From assembly GCA_949482135.1 (NCBI GenBank), contig CASYFC010000010.1:4264-68263 (forward strand): a stretch of DNA of 64,000 nt, in the 5' to 3' direction. The DNA is from an uncultured Clostridia bacterium. GTDB lineage: Bacteria; Bacillota; Clostridia; TANB77; CAG-508. Made by a program: the position numbers and the translations under genes. Each line of letters begins with the position of its first letter. The stretch's first letter is position 1. A model generated the notes under the pieces. The model was not told the DNA's origin. It worked only from the letters and a program-made list of their open reading frames with translations, and did no database searches. This document shows, piece after piece, positions 37,400-56,531 of this stretch.

Positions 37400-37466
37400 T
37401 ATTTACCATCTTTCAATTATTTTTCCTTATTTAAGCCATATATAAAAGAACCATATATAAAAGAAT

Positions 37467-38402
37467 TTACAGCCTTTTTAATCTTTCTTTTGAAAAATCA
37501 AATAATAAACTAACATACTCGAAAGTTTTATCAATATAATCTCTTAATGTTAAAACTTCTTTTTTCAATTTTTCGTTTTCTTGCTTTAAAGTATAATTTT
37601 CTTCTTGTACCTGTTCAGTTTTATACATTGTTTCTTCAACAATATTCTTAATTCTAGTATATCTTTTGGCAAGAGTATTAAACTTGTTTATTATTCTTTT
37701 ATAATCATTTCTTATAACATCAATATTATCGGTTATTTTCTCTTGTTCTAAACTGTTTGTATCTTTAAACATTTCTTGCATTTCAAAATTAGTAATCTTT
37801 TTTAATTTTTCTATTGGTATATGCTCATTATTTTTGGCATTTCCTCGTTCTAAATCAAAACCATTTTCAGTTACATATTTATAAAATCTATCTTGCAAAA
37901 TTCTATAACTTTCTTTACCTTTCCAAAACTCACTACAAGCTATTTTATTTATTTCTTTTCCTTTTTTATTTGTTGTATGAACTACTGGTATAAATACAAT
38001 ATGAAGATGTGGGGTAGTTTCGTCATTATGGACTTTTGCAGATACTATAAATTCTTCTCCTAAATTATTGTAATTAACAACAAAGTCATAAGCTAACTTG
38101 AAATATCGTTTTGTTTCTTGCTCTCCAATTCTTTCAAAAAAATCTTTGTCAGATGTAATAATCAATTCACACATTACATTACTAACTTTCTTTATTTGAC
38201 CTTTTAATTTGTATTTTTCTTTTATAAGATTAAAGGCTTTTTGATAGGATGTATTTATAGTTTTAAGAGAATAGTTTTTAATAGAATTACTTTTATTTAT
38301 ATCTTTATTAGAATAGTTAGTATTTTTTCTTTCATTGTGCCTATAAATATATGGTAGTTGTCCCATTTTATAGTTTTCATTTCTTATTATTGCATAACTC
38401 AC
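37467..38402 (-). CDS. MOBV (Mob/Pre) relaxase
   Basis: MSYAIIR, HNER, N.DI, HNDETTPHLH HUH motif, C-terminal coiled coil. Confidence 0.93.
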   Translation of the reverse strand: MSYAIIRNENYKMGQLPYIYRHNERKNTNYSNKDINKSNSIKNYSLKTINTSYQKAFNLIKEKYKLKGQIKKVSNVMCELIITSDKDFFERIGEQETKRYFKLAYDFVVNYNNLGEEFIVSAKVHNDETTPHLHIVFIPVVHTTNKKGKEINKIACSEFWKGKESYRILQDRFYKYVTENGFDLERGNAKNNEHIPIEKLKKITNFEMQEMFKDTNSLEQEKITDNIDVIRNDYKRIINKFNTLAKRYTRIKNIVEETMYKTEQVQEENYTLKQENEKLKKEVLTLRDYIDKTFEYVSLLFDFSKERLKRL

Positions 38403-38483
38403 ATTTTAAAATCTCCTTTTTATTTTTTAGGGGAAATCTTCGTAAGCTCTTACTTATGTTCTAATACTTTACAAGCCAGCTGA

Positions 38484-38527
38484 TATAACACAACTAAAAA
38501 GTGTTAGAACATACTAGAACACTTTTT
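38484..38527 (-). promoter_or_regulatory. Putative MOBV oriT
   Basis: Minus strand inverted repeat AAAAAGTGTT..AACACTTTTT followed by AGTTGTGTTATA, resembling the pMV158-family GTGTG/TTATA nick region; just upstream of mob. Confidence 0.65.
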
Positions 38528-38755
38528 ATACGCTATCGCTAAAAGTGTTCTGTATGATTAAGGGCAAGCCCCTAATAACCCCTTACAAGATTATTTGAAA
38601 TTATTTATTGTATTCATTTGAATATCAATAAATAATGTAATTATACTAATTACTATTTCAATAATCTTGTTATTTGGGAAACCTCTGTCGATTTCCCAAA
38701 CCTTTCCACTTCATTTGTGAAATCAATTAAATAAAATTTAATCAATTTCACAAAT

Positions 38756-39022
38756 TTATCTTTCGTGTTCTGCATAAAAGTTAGTATTTTTTCCTTTGCA
38801 AATTCCGTCTATATATGCTTCAACTTCGTTCCAAGTTTTAAAGCAATGCTTATCGTCAACAGAGTACCAGTCTTTATTGCTATATTTTTTATCTACAATA
38901 GCAACAGCTTTATTATATGTATAGTCATTAGAGATTTTTAAAAGTAATAATTTCTTGTCGCTATTTTCTAGCATATATTCATTTAAGCCGTTAATTCTTT
39001 TTTGTATATCTATTTTGCTCAT
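38756..39022 (-). CDS. Hypothetical protein (element)
   Basis: 88-aa ORF overlapping integrase stop (ATGA). Confidence 0.65.
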   Translation of the reverse strand: MSKIDIQKRINGLNEYMLENSDKKLLLLKISNDYTYNKAVAIVDKKYSNKDWYSVDDKHCFKTWNEVEAYIDGICKGKNTNFYAEHER

Positions 39023-40377
39023 CTTTCAATTTCTCCTTTTTCAATTTTTTCTTCAATTTGATTTAATTCTTTCTCTAATTCGTCTAAAAATTTCGTGTAT
39101 GAATTATATTCTTCAATAGGAATAGACCACATTTCAGCCCAATCTTCTATTGATTTTCTTAAATTTAACATTATCTCATTACTATCTTCAATACCAGTAA
39201 TTTCAGGTAAAATTTTTTGGCTATTTGGGTTGATAATATCGTTATTCATATAGTAATCATTAACTTTTTCTAATTCACTTTCTTTATACTTATTGAAAAC
39301 AGAAGTATAGGTATTTAATGTAACAGATACATCAGTATGTCCCATAAGTCTTTGAAGTGCAACGGCTCGCATACCAGCCTCAACACATCTTGTGCCGTAT
39401 GTATGTCTTAAGCTATGAGAACTTATATTTTCTATACCTAGTCTTTTTAATAAGGCTTTTAATTTATCATTAGCAGTAGTTGGTCTAACATAATTGCCGT
39501 TAGTATCTAAAAATAATTGCTTATCTTTATTGTTTTCAGCTAATTTCATTTGATTTATTATGTCATTTCTTATAAATGAGGGAATAGGTACTTCTCTAAT
39601 TCCTGCATAAGTCTTTGTTGCTTTTCCCATTATAACTTTATTGTCTTTATCTCGTGTTAAAGTCTTATTTACTAATAATAAATTTTTTTGTAAGTTTATA
39701 TCTGTACTTTTTAAAGCTAATACTTCACCAATACGCAAGCCTAAATACATTTGTATTAAATAAGCTACTTTATAAGGCTCTTGTGAAATGGGAATACTTG
39801 TTAGATAATCTGTTAATGCTTGTTGTTCTTCAATTTCTAATGCTCTAACAACTTTCTTGTCTTTTGTACTTTTTGGCTTTACAACATCACACATAGGGTT
39901 TCTAAAAAGATACCCTCTATTTACAGCAAGTTCAAAGGCTTGTGAGAATTGTTCTGCTATTTTTTTTATTGTAGAAGTACTGTAATCTTTTAAAGCATTA
40001 AAGTAATTTTGAATATCATTGCTTGTTATATCTATAATGTTTTCTCTTGTTACAGGTGCTTTTTCAATTTGTTTAATAGTTTTTAATATACGACCATAAG
40101 TTCTTTCACCAATTAAATTTAATTCTAATTTTTTATCAGCATTTTCCCTCATAAGTTGGTTTAGAGGGATACCATTATTTTTTATAAATAAATTATTTCC
40201 TTTTTGAAATTGAATACTTGTTAAAAAATCTTGTGCTTCTTTTTCTGTTGGAAAAGATTTAGTTTTTCTAATTTCTTGTCCGCTAGTAATTTCATAAGCA
40301 TAATATATACATCTCCAATTTTTCCTTGTATTATCAAAATAAATGCTTCCAGTTTTTATTTTTTTATCTTTTTCTAT
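39019..40377 (-). CDS. Tyrosine recombinase/integrase (start uncertain: ATA 40377 or TTG 40413)
   Basis: GLRIGE, K, HSLRHTY, LMGH, TLNTY catalytic residues; N-terminal arm-binding-like region. Confidence 0.95.
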   Translation of the reverse strand: MEKDKKIKTGSIYFDNTRKNWRCIYYAYEITSGQEIRKTKSFPTEKEAQDFLTSIQFQKGNNLFIKNNGIPLNQLMRENADKKLELNLIGERTYGRILKTIKQIEKAPVTRENIIDITSNDIQNYFNALKDYSTSTIKKIAEQFSQAFELAVNRGYLFRNPMCDVVKPKSTKDKKVVRALEIEEQQALTDYLTSIPISQEPYKVAYLIQMYLGLRIGEVLALKSTDINLQKNLLLVNKTLTRDKDNKVIMGKATKTYAGIREVPIPSFIRNDIINQMKLAENNKDKQLFLDTNGNYVRPTTANDKLKALLKRLGIENISSHSLRHTYGTRCVEAGMRAVALQRLMGHTDVSVTLNTYTSVFNKYKESELEKVNDYYMNNDIINPNSQKILPEITGIEDSNEIMLNLRKSIEDWAEMWSIPIEEYNSYTKFLDELEKELNQIEEKIEKGEIER

Positions 40378-40388
40378 AATAAATACCT

Positions 40389-40694
40389 CTAAACACGCTT
40401 GCTCATTTTCCAAATAAGATAGGAAAGAAGCATTACTTGATTAGATTTGCCAATATTTATTGAGGGAAAATCATTTCTTTTAAATGTTCTATAAGCTATT
40501 GTTTCACAAATATTCAAATCTCGCATAATATCTTTTACACTTAACATTTTAAAAGGGTTTTTTATTCTTTTTATACTTTGTATAGCCATAAGTTGTTCAG
40601 GGGTTAATGGTGCTGATAAATTTATATTTATTTTCTTTTCTTCTGTATCAATTTCATTTGCAACTTTCGTTGATATATTATCTATTTCGTTCAT
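40389..40694 (-). CDS. Excisionase-like HTH protein
   Basis: MLSVKDIMRDLNICETIAY..F..DFPSINIG; directly upstream of integrase. Confidence 0.75.
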   Translation of the reverse strand: MNEIDNISTKVANEIDTEEKKININLSAPLTPEQLMAIQSIKRIKNPFKMLSVKDIMRDLNICETIAYRTFKRNDFPSINIGKSNQVMLLSYLIWKMSKRV

Positions 40695-40707
40695 TTTATA
40701 AACTCCT

Positions 40708-41250
40708 TTAATTTGAATTATCTTTTATAAATTTCAAAATAATACTTTGTATTCCTAAAATCATTTTTAAAGTTTCGTTTGTTTCAAAACACTCATTATT
40801 ATCAATGGTAGGAGAAACAATATCATTTTCTCCAATTCCTTTTTCTATAATGAGTTTGCCTTTGCTTTTTAAAGAATTTTGTTTAGAGTTTGGAATATAT
40901 CTGCCTTTTTCGTCAAAATTGTCATAGTTGAAACTAGCTCTTTTCAAAAATTCTCTATACTTAATGGCTTGTTCTTTTGTTAATGATTTAAAGTTCTCGT
41001 TTTCTCTACAAATTATAACTACATCTCCTCGTATAGAAGAACCAATACTTAAAAATTCTGTATTGATATAAATATTAGGTTTTAAATGTTCTCTGTTTTT
41101 TCGTGCTATTATTGTTATATCTTCATAGGGTATATAGTCTAGCTCGCCACCTATTAAATCTTCAAAGGTCTTTTGTTCGTTTTTAATCTTCCTAAACTCT
41201 GCATCTGTGCCAACTTTTTTATAAATGATTATAATTTCTTTATTAGTCAT
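40708..41250 (-). CDS. Hypothetical protein, DUF3846-like N-terminus
   Basis: I.NE...FEDLIGGELD..PN..IRGDVVI..FKSL..EQ pattern. Confidence 0.6.
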   Translation of the reverse strand: MTNKEIIIIYKKVGTDAEFRKIKNEQKTFEDLIGGELDYIPYEDITIIARKNREHLKPNIYINTEFLSIGSSIRGDVVIICRENENFKSLTKEQAIKYREFLKRASFNYDNFDEKGRYIPNSKQNSLKSKGKLIIEKGIGENDIVSPTIDNNECFETNETLKMILGIQSIILKFIKDNSN

Positions 41251-41419
41251 ATAAATCACTACTTTCGTTGTTCAAGTTTGCTAGATACTGTTGATATGAT
41301 AGGTTGTCAAAGTATTTTTGATTTTTGCTATCGTCTAAACTAATTACATTTTCTGTAAATAGGTTGTCCTTAATTTTAGTTAGTTTTTCTTTGGTAACAG
41401 GCTTTGAAATTTTTTTCAT
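41243..41419 (-). CDS. 58-aa hypothetical protein (not in ORF track)
   Basis: AAGGAG RBS; MKKISKPVTKEKLTKIKDNLF...DLYD*; overlaps next ATG. Confidence 0.6.
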   Translation of the reverse strand: MKKISKPVTKEKLTKIKDNLFTENVISLDDSKNQKYFDNLSYQQYLANLNNESSDLYD

Positions 41420-41628
41420 TTTGAAATCTCCTTTTTAAAATTAGATTTCCAGAAATCTTTTCTCGTTCGAACAATTTAAGTTTAGCACGGAAGAAGTCTA
41501 TAAAATCATTTTGCCTAGTTATGTGTAAAAATGCGTAGGAAAGCATAGGAATTTATAAAAAAAGACACAAAAATAAGACCTAGCTAATAATCAAAATTTA
41601 CTAGCAAGTCTTATTTTGTGTTTTAGAA

Positions 41629-42006
41629 TTATTGAACATATATCAAACTAACAATTAAGTTAGTAAGAGATTTTGCTGTTATATAATACTCGTCATACTT
41701 AATATTGAAAATTGTTTCAAAGTTTTCTTTTGCTTTTGATGTGTCTTTAAATTTAAAAGCATAATCTATATTAGATTTAATAGTATTTGCCGTTGTATTT
41801 TCCTTTTCAGCTAATTTATTTCTCAAATCTATCAAGCTAATATCATTATAGTTATATTCTTGAATAGCAAGAGTTATAATATCTCTCAAATAAAATGTAC
41901 CTTTACTTGTAGGGCTTAAACCTAGCTCAATAAGTTTAGCTTGTATAAAAGCACGATATGATATTTTTTCTTTATCTTTTGTAAAAACATCATATTTAGT
42001 TTTCAT
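41629..42006 (-). CDS. Spo0A C-terminal DNA-binding-domain-only protein
   Basis: LIELGL....KGTFYLRDII..LAEK..TTANTIKSNIDYA resembles Spo0A effector domain; promoter TTGACT-17-TATAAT at 42076-42048. Confidence 0.75.
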   Translation of the reverse strand: MKTKYDVFTKDKEKISYRAFIQAKLIELGLSPTSKGTFYLRDIITLAIQEYNYNDISLIDLRNKLAEKENTTANTIKSNIDYAFKFKDTSKAKENFETIFNIKYDEYYITAKSLTNLIVSLIYVQ

Positions 42007-42230
42007 ACTTACTAACCTTTCTAATAGATTTAATTACTTATAAATATATTATACTTTCATTATGTAAACAAGTCAAAATATAGCAAATGTGCGTGCTACG
42101 CAACAAATGTTGCACTACACGCACATTTTAGGTTAAAAATGGGTGTTTTTGAGCTGATTTTTATATAAAAAGTTAGAAAAATTAGTAAAAATAGGTAAAA
42201 AGCATAAATTTGTGCGTCCCACGCAACAAA

Positions 42231-42338
42231 TTAAAATATGCAAAGAAAAAGGAGGCTATTACTGCCTCCAAAATCTAGTCTTAGCAACCTCCACCGCCAC
42301 CGTGGAAAAGCAATGACTGTTTTCTTTGATGATTTCAT
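42231..42338 (-). CDS. Small ORF (35 aa as sequenced) in a structured transcript
   Basis: GAAAGGA RBS; MKSSKKTVIAFPRWRWRLLRLDFGGSNSLLFLCIF; promoter 42559-42531; terminator ~42243-42270. Confidence 0.4.
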   Translation of the reverse strand: MKSSKKTVIAFPRWRWRLLRLDFGGSNSLLFLCIF

Positions 42339-42646
42339 CTGTTTGGTTTCCTTTCTATGTAATCTCTATTTCTTGCACATAAATTAGAAAGTCCAAACAA
42401 GTGGAAGTTCTATATATACAATTCGAGCCACTTTGCAGTAGCTCGAATAATAACTTTATGTTACAAACAAGCTACTGCTTGGGCAAAATCGTATATGAAA
42501 AGACTTTACCAAATAGGTATTTATATAAATATTATACCATAAAATGCCTTATAAATCAATTATATCAAGAGTTATACTGATTTTGTGTTGAATATTTTTC
42601 CATATAATAGTATAATAAATTTAATTTATATAAGGGGGTACTCATT

Positions 42647-43351
42647 ATGGCAGAATTTGATAGTAAAGATTTTGGAGAAAGACTAAAAAATTATAGAATA
42701 CAAAAAGGTTTAAGCCAAGAAAATATGGCGATACTTCTTAATAAAAATAGAAGCACTATTGCAAGATACGAAGCAGGAGAAATTTTGCCTGATGTTAGAG
42801 ATATTAGTATAATTTGCGAAGAACTAGGAATATACGAGGCTGACTTATACGGAAATGATACTAATCGAACAAGTCAAAATAATAAATCTAAAAACCCTTT
42901 TGGTACTGATAAATTGTATGTCTATTTCAATGCTTATAATTTTAGGACAAAACAATTTGCACCGGATAAATACATATTAGAATTAGAGCAAAAACAAAAT
43001 ATCTGCAAAGCAAAGTTTGTAGATTATCACGATAAGAGAATATACTCAGAGGGCTACTTAATATGCAATGACGAAATTGTATTTGCTGTAATGGAAAATT
43101 ACAAACCTACAAGCACTCGTGTTGATGTTGCTGTACTTGAAATAAATATTTGCAATGGTACAGACGGCTTAATGCTTGGTGGTTACTTTGGAACAAATGC
43201 AAAATGCGAGCCTAGTTTAAGAAAGTGTTATTTTTCAAAGAAAAATGTTGATTTTAGCAATGAGATGTTTGAACAATTAAAGTTAAATGAAAACGAACAA
43301 GAAATATTAAATAAACAAAATGCTTTATATTTAGATATTTTTAATATATAA
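42647..43351 (+). CDS. XRE-family HTH regulator with C-terminal beta-rich domain
   Basis: FGERLKNYR..KGLSQENMA..RSTIARYEAGEILP. Confidence 0.9.
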   Translation: MAEFDSKDFGERLKNYRIQKGLSQENMAILLNKNRSTIARYEAGEILPDVRDISIICEELGIYEADLYGNDTNRTSQNNKSKNPFGTDKLYVYFNAYNFRTKQFAPDKYILELEQKQNICKAKFVDYHDKRIYSEGYLICNDEIVFAVMENYKPTSTRVDVAVLEINICNGTDGLMLGGYFGTNAKCEPSLRKCYFSKKNVDFSNEMFEQLKLNENEQEILNKQNALYLDIFNI

Positions 43352-43386
43352 TTATAAAGACAAATAGTAATTTGTAGAGGTGTAAT

Positions 43387-43734
43387 ATGTTTAATGAAAT
43401 ATGTATATATGAAGCGAAACTAAACAAACTTGATGAAATTGAAGAACTAATGAAGGAAGTAGCAGAATTTTATTTGAAACAAGATGGAGTTATTGATGTA
43501 CACTATATAAAACGTACTCATCGACAAAAAGATTTTAATGCAGTAAAAAAAGGTGAACTACCTATTAGGCTTACAAGAAATGTAGGTAAGGTTATATATA
43601 TCTTATATTGGGTGCTAGAAAGCGAAGAAGCACATGCAAGAGTGTCTAAACTTGGTGTAGAAAAATTTTATAAACGTTGGAATAGGTGTTTAACGACAAT
43701 GCCTAAAATAATTTTGGGTGAAAATATTGTCTAA
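43387..43734 (+). CDS. Dimeric alpha+beta barrel (ABM-like) protein
   Basis: Ferredoxin-like pattern ..KQDGVIDVH..YILYWVLESEEAH. Confidence 0.5.
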   Translation: MFNEICIYEAKLNKLDEIEELMKEVAEFYLKQDGVIDVHYIKRTHRQKDFNAVKKGELPIRLTRNVGKVIYILYWVLESEEAHARVSKLGVEKFYKRWNRCLTTMPKIILGENIV

Positions 43735-43812
43735 CTAATAAATTACAATTTGTAAAAGAGATGTAAAATGCTTAATATAACATTATATAACATTACATAT
43801 TAGTAAGTTTTT

Positions 43813-43831
43813 TGCACACAATATGCACACA
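43813..43831. repeat. Right-end arm-type repeat
   Basis: TGCACACAATATGCACACA identical to 37006-37024. Confidence 0.8.
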
Positions 43832-44108
43832 AACAATTTCAAAAATGCTTGTAAATAGCATATTACAGCAATTCGAGTTGTATCTACCGCACCAAAAGAA
43901 GTAGTAAATTAAAACTACTTCTTTTTTGTTTATGAAATTAAATATATAAGAGTAATTGAAAAGAACATATAAAAAACAGAAGTGCCTGGGAATTTTCCCA
44001 GGCATTTCTGCTTTTATTCAGGATTTTATAATCTTTTTAGAAAAAGTTGTTTTATTAAAGCGATTTTCTATCCTAAATATGAAATTAAGTGAAGATTTTA
44101 ATTGTTAC

Positions 44109-44648
44109 TTATCGTACATAAGGGAGAAGCAGAATATAGTGCTCACAGTCCTCGGTTTTACCGAAAAAGTAGCCGTAATCAGCAACAGATTTTTTGATAT
44201 TTTCGATTCCGAAAGAAGCCAAAGCTGAGCAGAGCTCCTTAGAACTGTTGAAATTACCACTAACCTTATATTCTCGGTTGTAGATATCTACTGTGACCAG
44301 TTCAAATGGGTCTTCGATACTTTCTTCTTTTGGAATAGAATTAGATTCTTCCTCAGAGCTAGTAGCGGACTCAAGCTGGTTTTCCAGTATAGCATATAAC
44401 TCTTGGTAATGCATTTCAAGTGTTGCCAAGGACATAACAGTGTTTTCTATAAATGTATGGTTGGTTTTCTCGCAATCCTTTGATAGTCTTGTTACTGCTT
44501 CTAACTGAACTTGCATGGTAGAATTACTTGAAGTTAATTTGTCCACTTCAGCTTTGAGGCTAAGATTCATGCTCCAAAGAGCAATACAGCTCACAGTAGA
44601 GAACAGTAGCAGAGATATAGTAGCGATGGTTAAAATCTTCTTTTTCAT
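44109..44648 (-). CDS. Exported or membrane-anchored coiled-coil hypothetical protein
   Basis: MKKKILTIATISLLLF signal/TM; GGAGG RBS before ATG 44648; promoter 44755-44727. Confidence 0.7.
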   Translation of the reverse strand: MKKKILTIATISLLLFSTVSCIALWSMNLSLKAEVDKLTSSNSTMQVQLEAVTRLSKDCEKTNHTFIENTVMSLATLEMHYQELYAILENQLESATSSEEESNSIPKEESIEDPFELVTVDIYNREYKVSGNFNSSKELCSALASFGIENIKKSVADYGYFFGKTEDCEHYILLLPYVR

Positions 44649-44891
44649 GTTTGCATCCTCCAATTATTGATAAATTTAATTGACTGATAGGGAAAATACA
44701 AGATTCTAAAAGAAATCTCACTTATAATTATACTATACTTTACATAAAAAATCAAACTTTCAACAAGAGTGGATATATAGAAAATTAAATTTATTTCTTT
44801 TTCTTTATTAAAATATTAAAAAAATATATTGATACTTATGCTCTTAATGATATAATAAAATTATATAAATTTAAAGAATGGAAAAAATTAT

Positions 44892-47800
44892 ATGGGAGTT
44901 AATTTAGATGGACTTGAAAACGTTCCAAGAGAAGAAAGACAAGTTTTAAGCCAAGAAAAATTTTATGAATATATAAAATCTGTAGAAAGAACTTATTCAG
45001 AATCTATAAATTATTATATAATTTCAGAAGCTATACGAAGAGGTAAAGCAAATTTTGAAAGTATTTATCAAGAATATGTTATAAGTACAAAAGAAGAGTT
45101 AGCAGAAATTCTTGAAAAAGAAGTTGGCTTTAACATTTTAACTTATGATTTAAAAGAATTAATAAAAAATGTACCAGAAGAAATAATTAGTCAAATAGGT
45201 GATTTAGATTCTATAATTGATAGCATCCATGATTATGATGATTATGAAAAAATATCTGATGAAATAGATTTTTCTAATGTAGATGAACTATTTACAAAAA
45301 GATTAATAGATATTGCTACTGAAGTTAGTAAATGTGATTTAAGTCAAATTACTCAAGAATCTTATGCTAGAGCTAAATTTTTAAGATATATTAACTTTCA
45401 AAATACAGGAGCTAAATTAGATTTTGAATATATAAAACAAAATAGAGAAGATTATAAAATATATATAAGTTCTGAAAATTTGAAAGGAACAGAATTAATT
45501 TCATTTGATATTGATTTATATAATAGAACAGAAGAGGAAACTCCAAAGGAAGAATGGCCTTCTTTTATAAAAACTATTCAATTAAATCCCGAGAATTTTG
45601 ATGTATCTCAATATCAAACTGTAATAGATAGCTATAATATTGCAAATAAATGGATTAATAATGAAGTAGGATTATTTTTAGTAAATCAAGAATTACAAAA
45701 AAATAGTAAATGGTTAATAGATTATGCATTTGCCAATATAAAACAAGGTATATTTTTAGCAGAAAATATATGGAGTCAATTAACAAAAGAATCTCAAATT
45801 GAAAATAAAAATTGTTTTAAAAGTATACTAGATTATATTAAAGATTCTGAAAATACATACTTGTGGTCATCAGTATTTAAAACTACTGCTCCTGAGATTA
45901 TGGATGAAAATTCAGAAGATATAAATAAAATATTTACAAATGATGAAGGTATTTTACAGGATTCTTTTTTCTATGTAGCTTTTCCATATTTTAGTAATAA
46001 TTATAAAGAGCAGATGTATAAAGATAGTGAGGATTTGCCTTTTGAAAAAAGAGCTTTAATTTTATCAAAAACAAATCCACAATATATTAATGATAATTTT
46101 ATAGAGTTATTTGATGGACTAATAAATAGTCCGGAAACAAATGTTGGAAGATTTTTTTATACAAATAAATTAATGCAACATTTTACATCTCATGAATTTG
46201 ATGTAGCTAATATGGAACATTTTATGGAGGTTATCAAAGAAGCTTCTATAAATAGTGAATATGATTATTCAACAGCAATAAGTAATATATTTGCTTATTT
46301 AAATTGTAAAAATCAAATAGATTATTATAAAAAAATTATGCAAATAGGAATAGATAATAATATACCTGAGAAAAATATTGCACGCGTTTTCGAAAGTATG
46401 GATTCTCATGTTAAAGAAGAAAACTTTATTGATATATTAGAATTTTCACAAACACTTTCACCTAAGATTGCTCATTATATAAGAGGTTCTGGATATATAA
46501 GAATGGTTCAGAATATGCCAGATAAAAAAAGAGCAGAATTTATAGAGAAAAATTATAAAGATATATTGTTGTCTTTAAGGACTAAATTTACAGATTCAGA
46601 AGTTGGTTTTGAAGATACACTTTCATCATATGAAAGAGAAAAATTTGATAGTAATTATTCAGGAAAATTTGTAGCTATTCTTCTGGCAATGGACAAAAAA
46701 GGAGAGTTAAATTCTGATAATATTAATATAGTTATAGATAATTTGCCAAAACTTGGTGAAGATACTATTAGTAGATTATATAACTCTAATTCAGATATGA
46801 TAAGAGCAAATTCAAGTCAATTAATAACATCAGTATCAGCTTTAGGTAGAGAAGATGCAATTGCATTAATAGAAGATACGGAAAGATTATTTTCAAAAGA
46901 TACAATTCCTGATTTTGTAAAGTTGTATAAATTTTATGAAAACGTTGTAGAGAGGCAAAAACATGTTTTAAGTAATGCAATAAATAAAAAAGAGAATTAT
47001 TCTCCAGAACTACAACAAGCTGGTTCGGAAGAAGCTGGTAAAAGGATTATATTTTCTGATTTATTAAATATTTCTTTAAAATCTAATAATAAGTCTTTAA
47101 AAAAATTTATAGGTTTATTAGAAAAAGGAAATGAAATATATGTTAAATACTTAAATAATGGTAAAGATTTAAGTTCATTAACTGATGAAGAAAAAGATAC
47201 TTTAAGAAAATATTCAGAAACTTTATATACTATTTATGATGAATCTTTAGTTTCAAAATATGATAAAAAAGATCCTAGAAGAAGGATTAAAAATTCTAAA
47301 GATTATATGAAGACATTAGAGGATTTAACTAAAAGATATATAGGTAACGCATTCCCAAAAGATTTATCTAATGAAGTAATAAAAACTGTAATAGGCAGAT
47401 ATGATGAATTAATTGCAGGAAGAAGAACAATTGAAGATTTTAAAAAGTATATGAGAGATGTTAATATAGAATCTAATAAACGTCATGCAAGACTAGAAAA
47501 AACAAAATTAACATTAGAGCCAGGAGATTTAATCAAAGGTGTCCAAAATGCAAACAATTTCTTACAAGATTTATTTTCAAATGGTATTAGAGCTGGAGAA
47601 TTTTTAGGAACAGATACTCATACAGATGCTACACCTCTTGATTCTGATCATTCTATAATATTACCAAATAATGTAGGAGAATCTTTAAGAGATACAATAT
47701 CTAGAACTTCTTCAAACCTTTATGGATCTTTTTATTTAGTAATAAAAAAAGATGAACAAAAGATTAAATATACAAGAAACGACCCCGAATATACTTTTAA

Positions 47801-49217
47801 ATCAGAAAAAGCACCTGAATATCAAAGTAAACTTGGAAAAAATGCTGATAGAGAAGCTATCAAAGCAAGAATTAATAATAGAATTAATGGGTCTTTTGAA
47901 GAACCGAAACTTGAGGCGTTTTCAAGTTATGTAACTGGAATTGATCACTATGGTATAAGAACTGGCATGTCTATTACAGATGTTGATTATATAGTGGTAT
48001 CTAATTATGATAAACGCATAGGATATGAACTTGCTATGAATGGTACATTTATTCCAGTGGTAGATATGTCAACTAACGAGGTTGTTTTTGGAACTCAAGA
48101 TTATAAAAAAATAAGAGAGCAAATGCAAGGTTTATCTTATTTTGGAACAAAAAGATTTGAAGTTGAACAATCAGCATATAATTTACAAGTAGAAAAGAAA
48201 GTGGAGCAATTGTTTCCAGATGGTGATGTTAGAGAATCTATTAGTGAAAAAGATGCTAGAGTGAAAAGAGAAATTATTGAAAGAAAAGTACGTGAATCAA
48301 TACTAGAAAAATTAGGATTAGGATTTGAAAGTAAAATTACAGGAGATATTACTCCAGGATTTATAGAATTTATAGATACAGGCTCAACAGGAAGAGGAAC
48401 TAACCTTCCAGGTGATGGAGATTTTGATTTTTCAGTAAAAATTGATAAATCAATATTTGATAATTCTAAGAAAATGGATGAATTTAGAAGAGTATTAAAA
48501 GATGTACTTGCTATTCCTTCAAATCATGAAGAATGTAAATTAGATGAATTTAATGGTAATTTTAGATATAAAAAAGTACAAATTGAAGGGGCTCCAATAC
48601 CACTAGATATTGATATTACATTTATGCAAAAAAGTGAGGATGTTACATATTCAACAGATATGGCTGTAAAAGATAGACTACAAGGGCTTAAACAAAATGA
48701 TCCAGAAGGGTATAAAAGAGTAATTGCTAATATTGTTATTGCTAAAGAAATGCTAAAAAAAGAAGGTATTTATAAGAAAAAGTCATCAGATGGAGCTACT
48801 CTAGAAGGTGGATTTGGTGGTGTAGGAGTTGAAAATTGGATTTTACAAAATGGAGGATCTTTTGTAAAAGCAATGCAAACATTTTTAGATGCCTCAGAAA
48901 AGGCAGAAAGTTTTAATGAATTTATGGATATATATCCAATATTTGACTTCGGACAAAATCATATGGCAAAGGGATATCAACATGATAGTTTTATAAAAGG
49001 TTTATCTGAATTTGGATATAAAAAAATGCAAGAAAAATTTAAAGAATTTATAGAAGAATTAGCTCCAAATCAAGTTCAAGAAATTACTATGAAAGATTTG
49101 GCACGAAATGCATTAAAACAAGGAATAAGAACAGAAGAATTTAATGAAGCATATAGAAGTATCGCTCAAGAAGAATTGCAATTAGATACAGATAAAGATT
49201 TTATAGGAGGAGAATAA
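44892..49217 (+). CDS. 1441-aa multidomain protein: helical repeats, possible ART-like domain, Pol-beta-superfamily nucleotidyltransferase
   Basis: DTGSTGRGTNLPGDGDFDF, LDIDITF, AKEMLKKEGIY..GGFGGVGVENWILQNGGSF. Confidence 0.8.
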   Translation: MGVNLDGLENVPREERQVLSQEKFYEYIKSVERTYSESINYYIISEAIRRGKANFESIYQEYVISTKEELAEILEKEVGFNILTYDLKELIKNVPEEIISQIGDLDSIIDSIHDYDDYEKISDEIDFSNVDELFTKRLIDIATEVSKCDLSQITQESYARAKFLRYINFQNTGAKLDFEYIKQNREDYKIYISSENLKGTELISFDIDLYNRTEEETPKEEWPSFIKTIQLNPENFDVSQYQTVIDSYNIANKWINNEVGLFLVNQELQKNSKWLIDYAFANIKQGIFLAENIWSQLTKESQIENKNCFKSILDYIKDSENTYLWSSVFKTTAPEIMDENSEDINKIFTNDEGILQDSFFYVAFPYFSNNYKEQMYKDSEDLPFEKRALILSKTNPQYINDNFIELFDGLINSPETNVGRFFYTNKLMQHFTSHEFDVANMEHFMEVIKEASINSEYDYSTAISNIFAYLNCKNQIDYYKKIMQIGIDNNIPEKNIARVFESMDSHVKEENFIDILEFSQTLSPKIAHYIRGSGYIRMVQNMPDKKRAEFIEKNYKDILLSLRTKFTDSEVGFEDTLSSYEREKFDSNYSGKFVAILLAMDKKGELNSDNINIVIDNLPKLGEDTISRLYNSNSDMIRANSSQLITSVSALGREDAIALIEDTERLFSKDTIPDFVKLYKFYENVVERQKHVLSNAINKKENYSPELQQAGSEEAGKRIIFSDLLNISLKSNNKSLKKFIGLLEKGNEIYVKYLNNGKDLSSLTDEEKDTLRKYSETLYTIYDESLVSKYDKKDPRRRIKNSKDYMKTLEDLTKRYIGNAFPKDLSNEVIKTVIGRYDELIAGRRTIEDFKKYMRDVNIESNKRHARLEKTKLTLEPGDLIKGVQNANNFLQDLFSNGIRAGEFLGTDTHTDATPLDSDHSIILPNNVGESLRDTISRTSSNLYGSFYLVIKKDEQKIKYTRNDPEYTFKSEKAPEYQSKLGKNADREAIKARINNRINGSFEEPKLEAFSSYVTGIDHYGIRTGMSITDVDYIVVSNYDKRIGYELAMNGTFIPVVDMSTNEVVFGTQDYKKIREQMQGLSYFGTKRFEVEQSAYNLQVEKKVEQLFPDGDVRESISEKDARVKREIIERKVRESILEKLGLGFESKITGDITPGFIEFIDTGSTGRGTNLPGDGDFDFSVKIDKSIFDNSKKMDEFRRVLKDVLAIPSNHEECKLDEFNGNFRYKKVQIEGAPIPLDIDITFMQKSEDVTYSTDMAVKDRLQGLKQNDPEGYKRVIANIVIAKEMLKKEGIYKKKSSDGATLEGGFGGVGVENWILQNGGSFVKAMQTFLDASEKAESFNEFMDIYPIFDFGQNHMAKGYQHDSFIKGLSEFGYKKMQEKFKEFIEELAPNQVQEITMKDLARNALKQGIRTEEFNEAYRSIAQEELQLDTDKDFIGGE

Positions 49218-49675
49218 TGATAAACTTAAGATATAAAAATGCATATAAAGAAGTATTAGAAATAATAAAATATCTTCCTCCAAAAGATTTTTGTAAAATA
49301 CCTAAAGAGAAAATTGAATACTTTCAAAGAAATCAAAATATAGATTATGATTTTTGTTTGGATGCATCTATTCCATTAGAAAAACAAAAAATTTCAAGGG
49401 AAGCAAATGCAATTATTTTAAATTTATTTAAAGAGTACTTTATAGCTGATAAACAAAAAGTAAACCTTTTAAAATTATTAGATATTAATGAAAAAGAATA
49501 TAATGAAAAACAGAAAGAAAAGTATAATCCAGATAATATTTTTGATAATAGTGAAAAAATTGATAATGAAAAATCAGATTCTAAAAATTTACCTACTGAA
49601 GTTTATAAAGAAAACATATTTATAAAAATAATTCAATATTTAAAAAGGTTCTTTAATAAAAATAAAGAAAGATGA
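49217..49675 (+). CDS. 152-aa hypothetical protein translationally coupled to the nucleotidyltransferase gene
   Basis: TAATG overlap at 49215-49219; AGGAGG RBS inside upstream gene. Confidence 0.8.
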   Translation: MINLRYKNAYKEVLEIIKYLPPKDFCKIPKEKIEYFQRNQNIDYDFCLDASIPLEKQKISREANAIILNLFKEYFIADKQKVNLLKLLDINEKEYNEKQKEKYNPDNIFDNSEKIDNEKSDSKNLPTEVYKENIFIKIIQYLKRFFNKNKER

Positions 49676-49723
49676 ATTTGATTTCATCTTTCTTTATCTT
49701 TATACAAAAGTTATGAAAATGAT

Positions 49724-49903
49724 TTAAGCATTTTGGTCATCTTGTAAATTTTCTAATGCCACCCTTACAGCCTCTATAACAAATGCAGTGAATGTACATT
49801 CTTTTCCTGTAATTGATTCTTCAACTTGTTCAATTACATCATTAGGAAAACGAATACATTTATTTGTTGTTGATGGTGTTGATGGTATTTTAAATTTTTT
49901 CAT
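49724..49903 (-). CDS. Small ribbon-helix-helix-like DNA-binding protein
   Basis: NKCIRFPNDVIEQVE..FTAFVIEAVRVAL; GGGAGG RBS before ATG 49903. Confidence 0.7.
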   Translation of the reverse strand: MKKFKIPSTPSTTNKCIRFPNDVIEQVEESITGKECTFTAFVIEAVRVALENLQDDQNA

Positions 49904-50172
49904 AATTACATCCCTCCCGAGCATTACATATACATATATATGTATATAGTATAAACGGAAAATCGCAATTTATAAGCATAACATATGCGTTGCCAAACAA
50001 AACAAAATATTGTATACTATTTTATGCACAAAAAAATACGGTAAAGCGATAAGTTGCGAAAAAAATTAAAATAAAATAAATTTATAAATATTTATTATAA
50101 TTATTATTTTTAAAGATATATTTTTATGATATAATTTTTCAAATATCTTAAATTTATTAAGAAGGTGAAAAA

Positions 50173-50877
50173 TTGGAAAGAGTAGATAAAATAATTTCAA
50201 ATCAAACTGATTATACAAGAAGTGATGTAAAAAAATTAATAAAATCAAAAAAGATAATGGTAAATAATATTATAATAGATAAATCAGATATAAAAGTAGA
50301 TATAGAAAAAGATACTATTAGTATAGATGGAATAAATGTTGTTTATAAGAAAAATGTATATCTTATTTTAAATAAACCAGCAGGATATATTTCTGCAACA
50401 GAAGATCGAAAAATGCCAACTGTATTAGATATTGTATCTGGCGACTATGGAAATAGAAATTTATTTCCAGTTGGAAGGTTAGATAAGGATACAACAGGTT
50501 TAATGATTTTGACAGATGATGGCGATTTTGCTCATAAAATTTTGTCGCCTAAAAAGGATTCTAAAAAAATATATATTGCAACAATAGATATTCCTGTTAC
50601 TACAGAAATGAAAATAGGCTTTGAAAAAGGTATAAAACTTATTGATGGAGAATGTAAAACGTCAAAATTAGAAATAATTGATAAATATATTGCTAAAGTC
50701 ACTTTAACAGAAGGGAAATATCATCAAATTAAAAGAATGTTTGGATGTTATGGAGCAAAAGTTACTAAGTTGAAAAGAATACAAATTGGAGATTTTTGTT
50801 TACCTGAAAATTTAACTGAAGGTGATTATAGAGAATTAACACAAGAAGAGCTAAAATTAGTACAAGGAATAAAATAA
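50173..50877 (+). CDS. rsuA: 16S rRNA pseudouridine synthase, RsuA family (TTG start)
   Basis: S4 domain, LNKPAGY, VGRLDKDTTGL, EGKYHQIKRMF. Confidence 0.92.
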   Translation: MERVDKIISNQTDYTRSDVKKLIKSKKIMVNNIIIDKSDIKVDIEKDTISIDGINVVYKKNVYLILNKPAGYISATEDRKMPTVLDIVSGDYGNRNLFPVGRLDKDTTGLMILTDDGDFAHKILSPKKDSKKIYIATIDIPVTTEMKIGFEKGIKLIDGECKTSKLEIIDKYIAKVTLTEGKYHQIKRMFGCYGAKVTKLKRIQIGDFCLPENLTEGDYRELTQEELKLVQGIK

Positions 50878-50947
50878 TTTATTTTGCAGAATAATACTTT
50901 TTATAGAACACAACAAGGTTCTAAATTTTAAATAAGAGGAGCTTTAT

Positions 50948-51088
50948 ATGTTAGATAAAAAGGAAAATGTTACTAAATATGGGGAACAAGTATGTTCAGA
51001 ATTTGCTTGGCTTCCACTTGATAAACAAAAAGAGAATGCTGAAAAATTTGCAAAAATAACGTCGAAAAAAAGTAATAATAATAAATAA
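50948..51088 (+). CDS. 46-aa small protein (not in ORF track)
   Basis: GAGGAG RBS; MLDKKENVTKYGEQVCSEFAWLPLDKQKENAEKFAKITSKKSNNNK*. Confidence 0.5.
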   Translation: MLDKKENVTKYGEQVCSEFAWLPLDKQKENAEKFAKITSKKSNNNK

Positions 51089-53138: not shown

Positions 53139-56100
53139 ATGAATTATAATATTGATAAGAATTTAGAAATGGATCAAATATTACAATTAACAGGAAATAT
53201 ATGTAATAGAGCAGATATCATATATAGAAATTATTCAAAAATGAAAGACTCTATTTCAAATTATGTTCAAAATAATGATACCAAAAATGTACAAAATATT
53301 TTGGAAACAATAGATGAAACAATGTTTATTGTAAAAAAGATGAAAAAATATGGTAATGAAATACTTACATCAATTAATACTGATGTAAGTAAAAATGATG
53401 TAATTTATCAAAAAATTGATTTATATAATAATTTCTTAAATAAAAATGAAAATCGTATACTATCAAATAGTTCTTTTATAAAAAGTATGATAGACAATAA
53501 CAATCAATTAGTTCAAAATACAGAATTAGTAAAATTTACTAAAAAAATAAAAGTAAAAACTGATGAAACAATAAAGCCAAAAGTGAATTTGCAATCTATA
53601 GTTGCAGAAAACGAATTAAATGCAGAAAATAATGTTGAGTATTCAGACTTATCAAGAAATATATCAATTTCTGAAGATGATAATCATTTTGAAGAAACTT
53701 ATCAAGAAAGCTATGAAGTTGAAAAGAAAAATAATCGCCAAATAGAAATTCAATTTAAGAAAAGTAAAAAAAATGAAGCAATAGAAAGCAAAATTTTAGT
53801 TAAAGATAAGGAAGAATTAATAGAAGAAAATCAAATATTAAGTGATTCAAATAAAGCGTTATTTGAAGAAAATGAAACTTTATTTAGTGAAAACGAGAGA
53901 CTTCTTAAAGAAAATGAAAAGCTTTCAAAAAGTAAAGAAAAAGTATTAAAAGAAAGACAAGTCTTAACAAGTAAAAATAGCGAATTGTCTAAAGATAAAG
54001 AAGAACTACAAAATGAAAAAGAAAAATTAGAAAATGAATATAATAAATTACTAACTCAAAATAAAGAATTACTTATTCAAAAAGAAGATTTATTCAAATT
54101 AAATAAATTATTAACAAAAGAAGTTCAAGAATTTGAATTGCCTTATAAAAACAAAATAGAGAAAATGGAAAAAGAATATGATAATGTAATTAGTGCAAAA
54201 AATAAATTGGAACAAAGTTGTGAATTATTAAAAAATGACACAGATAAATATAAAGATTTGAATGAATTACAAAAAAATGAAATAGATGATTTAATACAAG
54301 AAAAAAATGAATTATTAAATGATAAAAAAATACTAATAACTGAAATAGAAACATTAGAAGAAGAAATTGAAAATCTGAATAATGATAAATTAGAAGTTAT
54401 AAATGGAAATAAATTGTTAGAAGATAATAATGAGAAAATATTATTAGAAAATCAGGAATTAAAAAACGAAAATGAAAAGATAAATAGTGCTTATGATGTA
54501 TTAGCAGGAGAAAAAGAAGAAGTAGTAAATAAAAATGAAAATCTAAAAAAAGAAATAGAAGATTTAAATATTAATAAATTGGAATTGGAAAACAATAATA
54601 ATTTACTTGAACAGGAAAAAGAAAATTTAATATTAGAAAATCAAGAATTGAAAGTTACTATTGAAAATAAAGATACTGAGTATAATAAATTAGTAGAACA
54701 AAAAGAAGAATTAAATAGTGCATATAATGAGTTAGCTGAACAAAAAGAAGAATTAAGTAGTGCATATAATGAATTAATTGGAGAAAAAGAAGAATTAGAT
54801 ATTGCATACAATAAATTTGCAGAAGAAAAAACAGAATTAAAAAATGAAATCAAAACTTTACATAATAACAACTTAGAATTTTCAATTGCTAATAAATTAT
54901 TGAAACAAGAAAAAGAAGAACTAAATAATCAAAATGAAGAATTAAAACAAGATATAGAAAATTTATTATTAGAAACTCAAGATTTGAAAGGAATTATTGA
55001 AAATAAAGATACTGAGTATAATAAATTAGTAGAACAAAAAGAAAATCTAAATACTACATATAATGAATTAGTACTAAAAAATGAAGAGATGAATGCTATA
55101 TATAATGAATTAGTAGTACAAAAAGAAGAATTAAAACAAGAAAATGAAAGTCTATTATCAGAGAATCAAAACTTTAAAGATGCTATTAAAAGCAAAGAAA
55201 TTGAGTATGATAAATTATTAGAACAAAAAGAATGTTTAAATACTTCATATGATGAATTGGCAAGTCAAAAGAAAGAATTAACAACGATATATAATAAAAT
55301 ATTAAAACAAAAAGAAAAACTAACAAATGAAAAAGAGGAGTTAAAAAAAGAACTTAAAGATTTAAAAAATAACAATTTAGAATTTGTAAATATTAATAAA
55401 GTATTAGAGCAAGAAAAAGAAAAACTATTAGTAGAAATTCAAGAAATAAAAGAAACATCAGAAAAGAAAAATACTGAATATAATGAACTATCAGAACAAA
55501 AAGAAAATTTAAATACTATATACAATGATTTAGTAGAACAAAATAAAAAATTAAACATTACATATAATGAATTAGTAGAAAAAAAAGAAGGATTAAATAT
55601 TGTTTATAATACGTTAGTGGTTCAGAAAGAAAAATTAAATGATGCATATAATACACTAGTAGTACAGAAGGAAAAATTAAATGGTGCATATAATACATTA
55701 GTAGTACAGAAGGAAGAATTAAATAATGCATATAATACACTAGTAGAAGAGAAAAAAGAACTAAATAATGGATATAATACACTAGTAGAAGAGAAAGAAG
55801 AACTAAATAATGCATATAATACACTAGTAGAAGAGAAAGAAGAATTAAATAATAATTATAATAAAATATTAAAACAAAATGAAAAGTTAACAAATGAGAA
55901 AAAAGAATTAAAAAAAGAAATTAAAGAATTAAATAATAATAATTTAGAATCTATAAATGCAAAAAAAATATCAGAACAAGAAAAAGATGAACTAATAAAA
56001 TCATATAAAGCTCTAGAAGAAGTTTATCAAAATAAATTAACAGAATTGGAGATAAAGTATAATAAAATTATTACAGAGAAAGATAAAGTTGAAAAACCTG

Positions 56101-56531
56101 AAAAGAAGGTGCATTCAAGTAATACTATAAATAAATATAGTACAGAACTTAAGGATAATAATGTATTATTAATTTCTAGAAAAGATGGAATGGTTTATTT
56201 ACCATACAATATTCAAGAGATTATAGATTATAAAAAATATAATAAAGTAGATTTAAGCATAGAAGAAATAATAGATGAAAAATATATTATTCCAATTAGA
56301 TACTATAAAAATAAACAAAAAGCTAGATATGCAGAAACATATGATTTAATGAGAAATAAATCTAGAGAAAGTATTGCAAATTCTATAAAAACAGCTTATG
56401 AAATTTCTCAAAATGAAAAGATACATCCAGCTATAATAACTGCTTGTAAGAATAAAGATGAATTAGATACATATATTCTGTGCTTACAAAATAATAGTAA
56501 GTTTAAAATCTTTGATATAAAATACGAATAA
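53139..56531 (+). CDS. Long coiled-coil protein with 14-aa tandem repeats and globular C-terminal domain
   Basis: Heptad-rich E/K/N/L body; (Q/E)KEELNNAYNTLVx repeats. Confidence 0.85.
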   Translation: MNYNIDKNLEMDQILQLTGNICNRADIIYRNYSKMKDSISNYVQNNDTKNVQNILETIDETMFIVKKMKKYGNEILTSINTDVSKNDVIYQKIDLYNNFLNKNENRILSNSSFIKSMIDNNNQLVQNTELVKFTKKIKVKTDETIKPKVNLQSIVAENELNAENNVEYSDLSRNISISEDDNHFEETYQESYEVEKKNNRQIEIQFKKSKKNEAIESKILVKDKEELIEENQILSDSNKALFEENETLFSENERLLKENEKLSKSKEKVLKERQVLTSKNSELSKDKEELQNEKEKLENEYNKLLTQNKELLIQKEDLFKLNKLLTKEVQEFELPYKNKIEKMEKEYDNVISAKNKLEQSCELLKNDTDKYKDLNELQKNEIDDLIQEKNELLNDKKILITEIETLEEEIENLNNDKLEVINGNKLLEDNNEKILLENQELKNENEKINSAYDVLAGEKEEVVNKNENLKKEIEDLNINKLELENNNNLLEQEKENLILENQELKVTIENKDTEYNKLVEQKEELNSAYNELAEQKEELSSAYNELIGEKEELDIAYNKFAEEKTELKNEIKTLHNNNLEFSIANKLLKQEKEELNNQNEELKQDIENLLLETQDLKGIIENKDTEYNKLVEQKENLNTTYNELVLKNEEMNAIYNELVVQKEELKQENESLLSENQNFKDAIKSKEIEYDKLLEQKECLNTSYDELASQKKELTTIYNKILKQKEKLTNEKEELKKELKDLKNNNLEFVNINKVLEQEKEKLLVEIQEIKETSEKKNTEYNELSEQKENLNTIYNDLVEQNKKLNITYNELVEKKEGLNIVYNTLVVQKEKLNDAYNTLVVQKEKLNGAYNTLVVQKEELNNAYNTLVEEKKELNNGYNTLVEEKEELNNAYNTLVEEKEELNNNYNKILKQNEKLTNEKKELKKEIKELNNNNLESINAKKISEQEKDELIKSYKALEEVYQNKLTELEIKYNKIITEKDKVEKPEKKVHSSNTINKYSTELKDNNVLLISRKDGMVYLPYNIQEIIDYKKYNKVDLSIEEIIDEKYIIPIRYYKNKQKARYAETYDLMRNKSRESIANSIKTAYEISQNEKIHPAIITACKNKDELDTYILCLQNNSKFKIFDIKYE
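55605..55870 (+). repeat. 42-bp coding tandem repeat (~6 units)
   Basis: TATAATA starts at 55605, 55647, 55689, 55731, 55773, 55815, 55857. Confidence 0.9.

Follow-up and report, generated by a model that had tools for sequence, protein, structure and literature searches.

The window analysed here is a 64,000-nucleotide stretch of contig CASYFC010000010.1 (positions 4,264 to 68,263 of the forward strand) from an uncultured Clostridia bacterium, and our subject is a pair of overlapping genes within it. The first, a giant gene on the + strand (44892..49217), encodes a protein of 1441 amino acids (P0001), and the second, the partner gene (49217..49675, +), encodes a protein of 152 amino acids (P0002) in which an acidic linker joins an N-terminal domain of ~115 residues to a C-terminal amphipathic helix. 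The coordinates of both open reading frames (ORFs) had been given correctly in an earlier note made from the letters of the window, which also claimed that the partner is translationally coupled to the giant gene. The junction, GGAGGAGAATAATG, bears this out: the stop codon and the start codon share the letters TAATG, and the last codons of the giant gene contain an AGGAGG a short way 5' of the partner start. The top-scoring promoter-like site of the region (44829..44856, +; TTGATA-16-TATAAT with an extended TG, 11 of 12 matches) lies ~36 nt 5' of the ATG, but such sites number 42 in the region against 40.5 expected from shuffles, which is no excess, and the site is therefore a candidate promoter only. 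At the other end, a strong and A+U-rich hairpin (49656..49703, +) overlaps the stop codon of the partner gene and is a likely operon terminator; RNA folding gave it -20.1 kcal/mol (z -7.4), and none of 200 shuffles folded equally well. A consensus terminator scan of the region, which demands G+C-rich stems, found no terminator. The two genes look like a single transcription unit, and the giant gene is present in a single copy in the source genome (G000), an assembly of 2.02 Mb that is 91.9% complete.

Neither protein matched anything useful in Pfam, NCBIfam or PHROGs, with no Pfam or NCBIfam match at all, and searches of the Protein Data Bank (PDB) sequences using phmmer and profile hmmsearch were equally unproductive. 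The giant protein is nevertheless far from alone. A word-indexed search retrieved 216 relatives at E<=0.001; the 120 of these that were listed are mostly 1200-1600 aa long (range 806-1621), and precomputed Pfam domains are absent from all 120, so the description of the protein as undescribed in the earlier note holds for its relatives as well. The part that can be aligned to a distant clade is limited to aa 573-1390, where identity is 34%. Searching with a profile built solely from the central domain discussed below retrieved 965 clusters (built at 50% identity) at E<=0.001, of which 816 reach E<=1e-10, and the longest protein has 6114 aa. The family is thus real, large and unannotated. Among the papers listed in searches for fusions of the kind described below, and in passages of PMC9503650 and PMC8120803, we found no description of it, although one could exist elsewhere.

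A scan of one genome per species identified 327 stretches encoding family members, of which 80 were kept as loci (numbered with L), nearly all from metagenome-assembled genomes of uncultured gut Clostridia or 'Bacilli'. Within the order to which the window belongs, 13 of 201 sampled genomes match the family profile and only about seven carry the catalytic core. Stop codons interrupt some of the copies, and truncated ORFs occur among the relatives' loci. Of 37 pattern stretches in viral contigs none was confirmed, no member was found in phage records or plasmids, and Foldseek against the BFVD viral models gave nothing at E<=0.001, the best match being a Tupanvirus ORFan at 1.6e-3. When 145 ORFs around 12 relatives were annotated with Pfam they proved to be mostly housekeeping genes, often translation genes, with no recurring operon, and after clustering of the neighbours in all 80 loci the partner family alone exceeded seven loci. 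With its patchy chromosomal distribution and its lack of conserved neighbours, the family behaves as an accessory, stand-alone gene. Among the relatives, L074 encodes a protein of 3952 aa (24-11882, +), and two of the giants examined (P0148 and P0171; others include P0145 and P0131) add a transglutaminase-like (Transglut_core) domain.

The enzymatic nature of the protein is clearest toward its C terminus. Residues ~1096-1395 (48177..49076, +) fold, in an AlphaFold2 (AF2) model of aa 860-1441 (pLDDT 81, pTM 0.76), into a Pol-beta nucleotidyltransferase (NTase) domain with a helical lobe of the type seen in poly(A) polymerase (PAP) and OAS. Foldseek placed the archaeal class I CCA-adding enzyme 1r89 first (E 1.2e-6) among 23 matches at E<=0.001, followed by Cid1, CdnC, PAP, OAS1 and CdnE, and the VIA structure alignment agreed, with AfCCA (4x4n_A) at Z 13.4 (root-mean-square deviation, rmsd, 3.6; 227 residues aligned) ahead of Cid1 (12.2), TUT7 (12.1), CdnB (11.9) and CdnC (11.6). 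The motif that characterizes the superfamily is present as G1164-S-x11-D1177-F-D1179 (GSTGRGTNLPGDGDFDF begins at aa 1164), with the third carboxylate within D1239-I-D1241. The corresponding residues G305, S306, D318, D320 and D382 (numbered in the fragment aa 860-1441) are invariant in 48 aligned sequences, and PF01909 was found above its cut-off in two of 12 giant relatives. The earlier note had read a GS-x9-DFD here with a third Asp in a DIDI; the residues are as it described and DIDI lies at aa 1239, but the spacing is x11 rather than x9. Its assignment to the class I CCA/OAS/CD-NTase type of enzyme is supported both by fold and by motif. GGFGGVGVEN lies at aa 1306, and the G-F-x-G-G...E...GSF pattern of the domain appears to resemble the PAP and class I CCA motif. 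By fold and motif this segment is a genuine Pol-beta NTase, and its lobe is of the PAP/OAS type.

The closest known enzymes to this domain, class I CCA enzymes, PAPs and terminal uridylyltransferases (TUTases), have in common with it the GS...DxD...D motif and the helical lobe. The giant protein differs from class I CCA enzymes in that the body and tail domains are missing, identity is 17-18% and the protein has no Pfam match. The CD-NTases of cyclic oligonucleotide-based antiphage signalling systems (CBASS) and OAS have the same fold at Z 9-12, but the giant protein is far larger than these and is fused to a second enzymatic domain, and CD-NTases are no closer to it in structure than the terminal transferases are.

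That second domain occupies aa 860-1095 (47469..48176, +), includes a clade-specific insert of ~35 aa, and is predicted from its structural model to adopt the fold of the ADP-ribosyltransferase (ART) superfamily, with the split beta-sheet that binds NAD+. An AF2 model of aa 840-1095 (pLDDT 78) was used in a wide VIA search, in which only 69 chains reached Z>=2. The best was Tpt1 (7yw4_A, Z 7.9, rmsd 2.6, 103 residues aligned), and further matches were to DarT (7omv, 7.1), DarTG (7yk3_C, 6.5), CteC (6.1) and DarT1 (8baq, 5.9), then to toxins and PARPs. The first clearly unrelated fold appeared at row 36 with Z 3.0, and the 35 rows before it we take, by title or recall, to be all of the ART superfamily. 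Because this list is dominated by ARTs from its top, the weak 'ART-like' call of the earlier note was right at the level of the fold; the motifs on which it drew were all found in the translation (GDLIKGV at aa 878, LQDLFSNGI at 891, YGSFYLVIK at 944, HYGIRTG at 1019 and VDYIVV at 1031, together spanning nt 47523-47999), as were the others that it cited. The residues that are invariant or nearly so across the family are G878 D879, K882 G883, D912-x-T-P-L-D917-x-D919, E1008 and H1019-Y-G-x-R-T-G1025. In the strand order of the model, read without a residue-level superposition, K882-G883 lie on strand 1, D919-x-S921 on strand 2 and the invariant E1008 on strand 5. We infer that K882, S921 and E1008 may occupy the ART catalytic positions, for which the motif classes H-Y-E, R-S-E and H-H-h are distinguished in PMC8120803, and that E1008 would be the catalytic Glu.

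Two ARTs deserve closer comparison. Tpt1/KptA (PF01885, of the H-H-h clade) offers the best fold match (7yw4_A, with 7yw2_A at Z 5.6 and 7kw9_A at 3.6) and is likewise an NAD+-using fold, directed at nucleic acid. However, the match covers only the NAD lobe of Tpt1 (chain residues 111-230), the giant domain lacks the winged-helix RNA lobe, there is no PF01885 match, strand 1 has K-G in place of the H-x-[ST], and the RH-R-R tetrad is not identifiable. DarT of DarTG (PF14487), an ADP-ribosyltransferase of thymidine in single-stranded DNA, is the second-best fold and the top Foldseek row, and in our mapping the invariant Glu on the fifth strand could match its catalytic E160 (so listed in Table 1 of PMC8120803). 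Unlike DarT, the giant domain has no PF14487 match and is embedded in a 1441-aa protein, and DarG-type macrodomains (PF01661) were found neither in the 92%-complete source genome nor as conserved neighbours in the 80 loci.

The two domains nearly always occur together. Their profiles co-occur in 134 of 136 representatives, ~10 residues from one another, and the two exceptions end at the ART domain; the ART-NTase fusion is obligate. One locus (L038) apparently contains two copies of the module ~7 kb apart (3344-4822 and 11508-12110). N-terminal to the ART domain, a conserved region (aa 573-859; 46608..47468, +) aligns across both clades and contains near-invariant polar motifs, including SNS, SP.L and FSDL...SNN.S, and it had no match among families or in the PDB and no usable match in the ESM Atlas (queried with aa 573-860).

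The first 572 residues (44892..46607, +) are, by contrast with the conserved rest, specific to the window's clade, with no alignment to the distant clade. The earlier note described repeats of ~35 aa here. In the single sequence they are no better than chance, as a self-alignment of aa 1-860 gave a top score of 41 against shuffle maxima of 39-50. A comparison of profiles built from segments of the close-clade alignment did detect a repeated unit: aa 291-354 match aa 361-416 (probability 80%, E 1.4e-5), there are weaker matches to aa 488-565, and the note's motifs (aa 293, 328 and 499) lie within these units. The repeats can therefore be retained at the profile level only, as weak units of ~35-65 aa in about aa 282-565 (nt 45735-46586, +). 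Another repeat, ~145 aa long and marked by P.EL...FY.[RK], characterizes the distant clade; this pattern has 146 matches in 121 proteins, one in shuffles and none in P0001. Since the repeats differ between the close and distant clades, the N-terminal arm is, judged by its sequence, variable and made of repeats, and conservation is found in the 870 residues at the C terminus. Four further giants of 803-1636 aa (L099 1502-5470, -; L102 2939-6907, +; L100 2436-7346, +; L101 1815-4226, -), from genomes of the window's order, have in common with the family just the N-terminal repeat region of the distant clade (profile positions ~125-700) and have no ART-NTase module, and in all four loci they are followed by a protein of 408-439 aa with a short partial Aldedh-like match. 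The occurrence of the repeats without the module and next to another gene suggests that the repeat arm serves as a scaffold that can be reused with different partners.

The partner protein has a narrower distribution than the giant. A hidden Markov model of its family found a member in 14 of the 80 loci and no member within ~8 kb in the other 66. In 11 loci, which all belong to the window's clade or lie close to it, the member directly follows the giant gene. The linkage is thus conserved among the closest relatives, in which the gap from giant to partner gene is -1, -1, 0 and +9 nt (L001-L004), but it is a trait of one sub-clade and not of the family. The source genome encodes six paralogues of the partner, P0002 included, with the other five on contigs C1, C3 and C7 (L094-L098). 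One of them (L095) follows a transglutaminase-like protein in a cluster with HopA1-effector-family and leucine-rich repeat proteins, another (L094) follows an HD-domain protein plus a 152-aa ORF, and the rest include neighbours of rplM and infC. When the giant protein was compared by BLASTP with the proteins encoded upstream of these paralogues, no common region was detected.

Where the partner may bind can be read from a predicted complex. Partner and aa 860-1441 together gave an ipSAE of 0.80 (0.79-0.82 between runs; best of three controls 0.00), a mark that 58 of 80 solved complexes and two of 110 mismatched pairs reach, a calibration that holds only roughly here because the complex was predicted from our own alignments. 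The runs agreed in at least 67% of contacts, and the pLDDT of the partner was at least 70. In the prediction aa 2-95 of the partner contact aa 1396-1427 of the giant protein (fragment 537-568), which lie in a clade-specific, two-helix C-terminal tail (aa 1396-1441; 49077..49214, +), the ~46 residues that are all that follows the helical lobe. This tail is present in the partner-bearing relatives compared and absent from the partnerless L013, L016, L033 and L055; L005 and L006 have a similar tail and no partner within the locus. The C-terminal helix of the partner has a hydrophobic moment of 0.78, a value reached by 1.7% of shuffles, and the family median over 42 members is 0.69. The giant protein itself has no transmembrane segment (maximum hydropathy 0.84) and no secretion signal, and a strongly hydrophobic anchor forms the C terminus of seven among 256 proteins of the family. 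Because the partner is predicted to grip a clade-specific tail, away from both active sites, and is one of six paralogues in the genome, the model points to an adaptor or tether of the giant enzyme and not to an inhibitor of its active sites.

The interpretation that we favor, at a probability of roughly 45%, is that the giant protein works by itself as a conflict enzyme and acts on the ends of nucleic acids. It would be a soluble, cytoplasmic protein whose conserved core holds an ART-fold domain and a template-independent Pol-beta NTase in fixed tandem, after a fast-diverging, helical N-terminal region and the conserved stretch of ~290 aa. Modification of RNA, or possibly DNA, termini is proposed because the enzymes closest in structure to the two domains (Tpt1 and DarT; the CCA enzyme and TUTases) have nucleic-acid ends or bases as their substrates; NAD+ would be used by one domain and NTPs by the other. 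The variable N terminus may sense or regulate, as in a self-contained defence-type enzyme. In the window's clade the partner would dock on the C-terminal tail and its amphipathic helix would tether or localize the enzyme, for example at the membrane, while some relatives may be tethered directly by their fused C-terminal transmembrane anchor. Distribution and architecture fit a stand-alone conflict enzyme better than they fit repair, signalling or a secreted toxin.

Several observations weigh against this interpretation. The ART assignment, itself drawn from a model, stands at the level of fold only and lacks support in sequence: Z 7-8 falls in the range that VIA terms 'middling'; Foldseek with the ART model found nothing at E<=0.001, its top rows (DarT1, cholix and diphtheria toxins, tankyrases) all having E of at least 0.078, the value for DarT1; hhalign against small alignments of Tpt1 (four sequences) and of DarT gave a probability of 0.4% each; and none of 54 domain sequences matched the ART families of Pfam even at E<=1. 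A profile of the central domain likewise matched no PDB sequence, and in the ESM Atlas aa 860-1095 retrieved unnamed clusters only (best score 0.85). At the strand-1 position where ARTs carry an H or R there is neither, K882 being found instead. For the NTase, fold cannot separate terminal transferase from cyclase chemistry, since its CCA, TUTase, PAP, CD-NTase and OAS neighbours lie within ~2 Z units despite very different chemistry. No sensor NTPase domain was recognised in the giant protein, and it has no significant match to the known defence systems in PADLOC. Its gene lies outside any defence island and its neighbours are mostly housekeeping genes. The membrane role proposed for the partner is read from its amphipathic helix only, and the calibration of its predicted complex is approximate, as stated above.

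An unlikely alternative is that the protein serves RNA repair or maintenance of tRNA 3' ends, with the Tpt1-like domain healing an end (for example by clearing a 2'-phosphate) and the CCA-like NTase rebuilding it, either as housekeeping or against ribotoxins. The top structural neighbours of the two domains are indeed Tpt1 and a class I CCA enzyme, neither Tpt1 nor the class II CCA-adding enzyme (PF01743) was found in the source genome, which is 91.9% complete, and the giant gene's neighbours are often translation genes. There is also a precedent, in that bacterial Tpt1 occurs in operons with the RNA-repair polymerase Thg1 (PMC8120803). However, all 30 predicted tRNA genes of the source genome encode CCA. 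Across the 201 sampled genomes of the order PF01743 was found in 69 and not found in 132, ~130 genomes have neither it nor the giant core, and the two show no complementarity. Among the seven core carriers PF01743 is present in four (G028, G079, G094 and G109) and a short frame of it in a fifth (G089), with none in G000 and G065. The match to AfCCA covers only chain residues 3-252 of 437, leaving the tRNA-binding body and tail without counterpart, just as the Tpt1 match is limited to the NAD lobe and leaves the RH-R-R tetrad unaccounted for. Giant size, a diverging N terminus and a patchy distribution would also be unusual for a repair enzyme. The narrower proposal that the giant protein is the CCA enzyme of the cell was rejected for the lack of complementarity and the encoded CCA ends. 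The earlier note had raised the possibility that the NTase might behave as an ordinary tRNA CCA enzyme; with PF01743 co-occurring in four to five of seven carriers and the body and tail domains lacking, it does not appear to be one.

Many ARTs and some Pol-beta NTases modify proteins. A dual protein modifier, which would ADP-ribosylate and also AMPylate or UMPylate host regulators or invader proteins, is another interpretation that we consider improbable. The ubiquitin-directed ART CteC is among the best matches of the ART domain, and in our mapping the strand that holds the invariant Glu is the one on which the Glu of R-S-E and H-Y-E enzymes is found; the modification of proteins by enzymes of these kinds (see also Table 1 of PMC8120803) likewise counts in its favor. 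Yet the nearest ART neighbours, Tpt1 and DarT, are nucleic-acid enzymes, the helical lobe of the NTase is of the PAP/CCA type, as is typical where a 3'-OH is extended, and no target or regulator gene is linked across the 80 loci.

Lower still in our estimation is a second-messenger synthase of the CD-NTase or OAS kind, in which a signal, cyclic or linear, would be produced by the NTase (perhaps together with the ART domain) once infection is sensed, a CBASS-like reading that the earlier note had also offered. CdnB, CdnC, CdnE and OAS1 are among the close structural neighbours, and PADLOC gave one sub-threshold match of the giant protein to its 'Cyclase' model (E 0.0068, aa 1156-1204), the sole sequence support. 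That match amounts to 13.8 bits over 49 residues around a generic GS..DxD. The same note remarked that no CBASS Cap or effector genes were recognisable nearby, and our searches agree: no CBASS effector, Cap2/Cap3 or HORMA/TRIP13 gene was found in the window or the loci of 12 annotated relatives or as a conserved neighbour in the 80 loci, and no receptor gene is conserved in those loci or present in the window.

Very unlikely, finally, is a toxin neutralised by the 152-aa partner as antitoxin or immunity protein, the earlier note having suggested a toxin with a small inhibitor or chaperone: the tight overlap of the genes, their adjacency in L001-L004 and the strong predicted complex speak for it, but the 66 partnerless loci retain all catalytic residues, the predicted interface is on the tail far from the active sites, five more paralogues of the partner sit beside unrelated genes, and the giant protein has neither a secretion signal nor a transmembrane segment. 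The label 'toxin' finds no support from secretion signals or immunity genes, and the protein differs from polymorphic toxins in having its conserved part at the C terminus and its variable part at the N terminus, the reverse of their order. It is similar in build to the polyvalent proteins of phages and conjugative elements, which are very large, have multiple domains and can combine an ART with other enzymatic domains (PMC5512222), and the transglutaminase-like domain added in some giant relatives is of a protease kind, but polyvalent proteins are encoded by mobile elements, and the giant gene is chromosomal, with no family members found in the viral contigs, phage records and plasmids. For each of the CCA enzymes, CD-NTase/CBASS, Tpt1 and DarT, the giant protein fails a defining test of membership.

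The region 5' of the giant gene contains a tRNA-Leu gene (36777-36859) and then genes for a Mob_Pre relaxase, a tyrosine integrase, a DUF3846 protein, a Spo0A_C-like protein and a helix-turn-helix (HTH) protein. A blastn comparison with the locus of the closest relative (L001) showed that window positions 34492-36860 and 43887-51000 are collinear with it, and that 36861-43886 are missing from L001. The relaxase and integrase block is therefore a separate insertion at the tRNA, an integrated mobilisable element of ~7 kb (36861-43886) lying directly after tRNA-Leu. It includes the Mob_Pre relaxase (37467-38402, -), the tyrosine integrase (39019-40413, -) and the DUF3846, Spo0A_C-like and HTH proteins. 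About 9 bases of L001 were matched at both flanks of the insertion, and there is a 22-nt direct repeat (37003-37024 and 43810-43831). In L002 the giant gene directly follows tRNA-Leu, as in the L001 arrangement. The giant gene is part of the chromosomal backbone, outside this element, and the idea that it is cargo of a mobile element, which the nearby Mob_Pre, integrase and DUF3846 genes invite, was rejected because the block is an insertion missing from L001.

The window has other features of note. A 66-aa ORF without a Pfam match (49724-49924, -) converges on the partner gene, in a stretch that is conserved in L001. Farther downstream, a 1130-aa ORF (53139-56531, +) lies in a very A+T-rich stretch (GC 0.196 at 54-56 kb) and encodes reiterated coiled-coil repeats of the type 'EELNNAYNxLVEEKxEL'; it has no Pfam match and is unrelated to the giant protein. 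A tmRNA gene (22955-23308, +) specifies the tag peptide ADNKELAFAA. DNA nearly identical to window positions 43800-50300 was found in gut and feces metagenome runs from eight studies, with mouse gut among the labels; 16 of 20 matching rows were flagged as possible sources, and three runs that were compared show no differing letters. No RNA run was among those listed, and two runs labelled RNA-Seq were judged to be probably DNA.

Since neither the giant protein nor its listed relatives match Pfam, a family of about 1000 clusters at 50% identity, made up of very large proteins of gut Firmicutes, is invisible to current annotation and to the finders of defence systems. It adds to the ART fold a branch that is an orphan in sequence, with seemingly non-canonical active-site residues, and that is obligatorily fused to an enzyme of the terminal-transferase type. 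The pairing of the two domains echoes Tpt1-Thg1 RNA repair and the DarT and MenT-type nucleic-acid toxins and matches none of these. The partner family, with six paralogues in one genome and one of them confidently predicted to clasp an enzyme tail, may provide these organisms with adaptors for docking or tethering in general. It is speculative, and in our view unlikely, that the tandem is a new two-step machine in which an RNA or DNA end would be ADP-ribosylated from NAD+, or dephosphorylated via ADP-ribose, and the same end then extended or capped by the adjoining polymerase-type site. A tail anchor or a dedicated family of small adaptors would hold the machine at the membrane and a giant, variable sensor arm would control it, so that uncultured gut Firmicutes would widely possess an immune or conflict system made of a single protein; if true, the product would be a hybrid nucleic-acid modification not yet described. 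Identification of the substrate of the ART-NTase enzyme could bring to light a modification of nucleic acids, or a conflict system of one gene, that is new.

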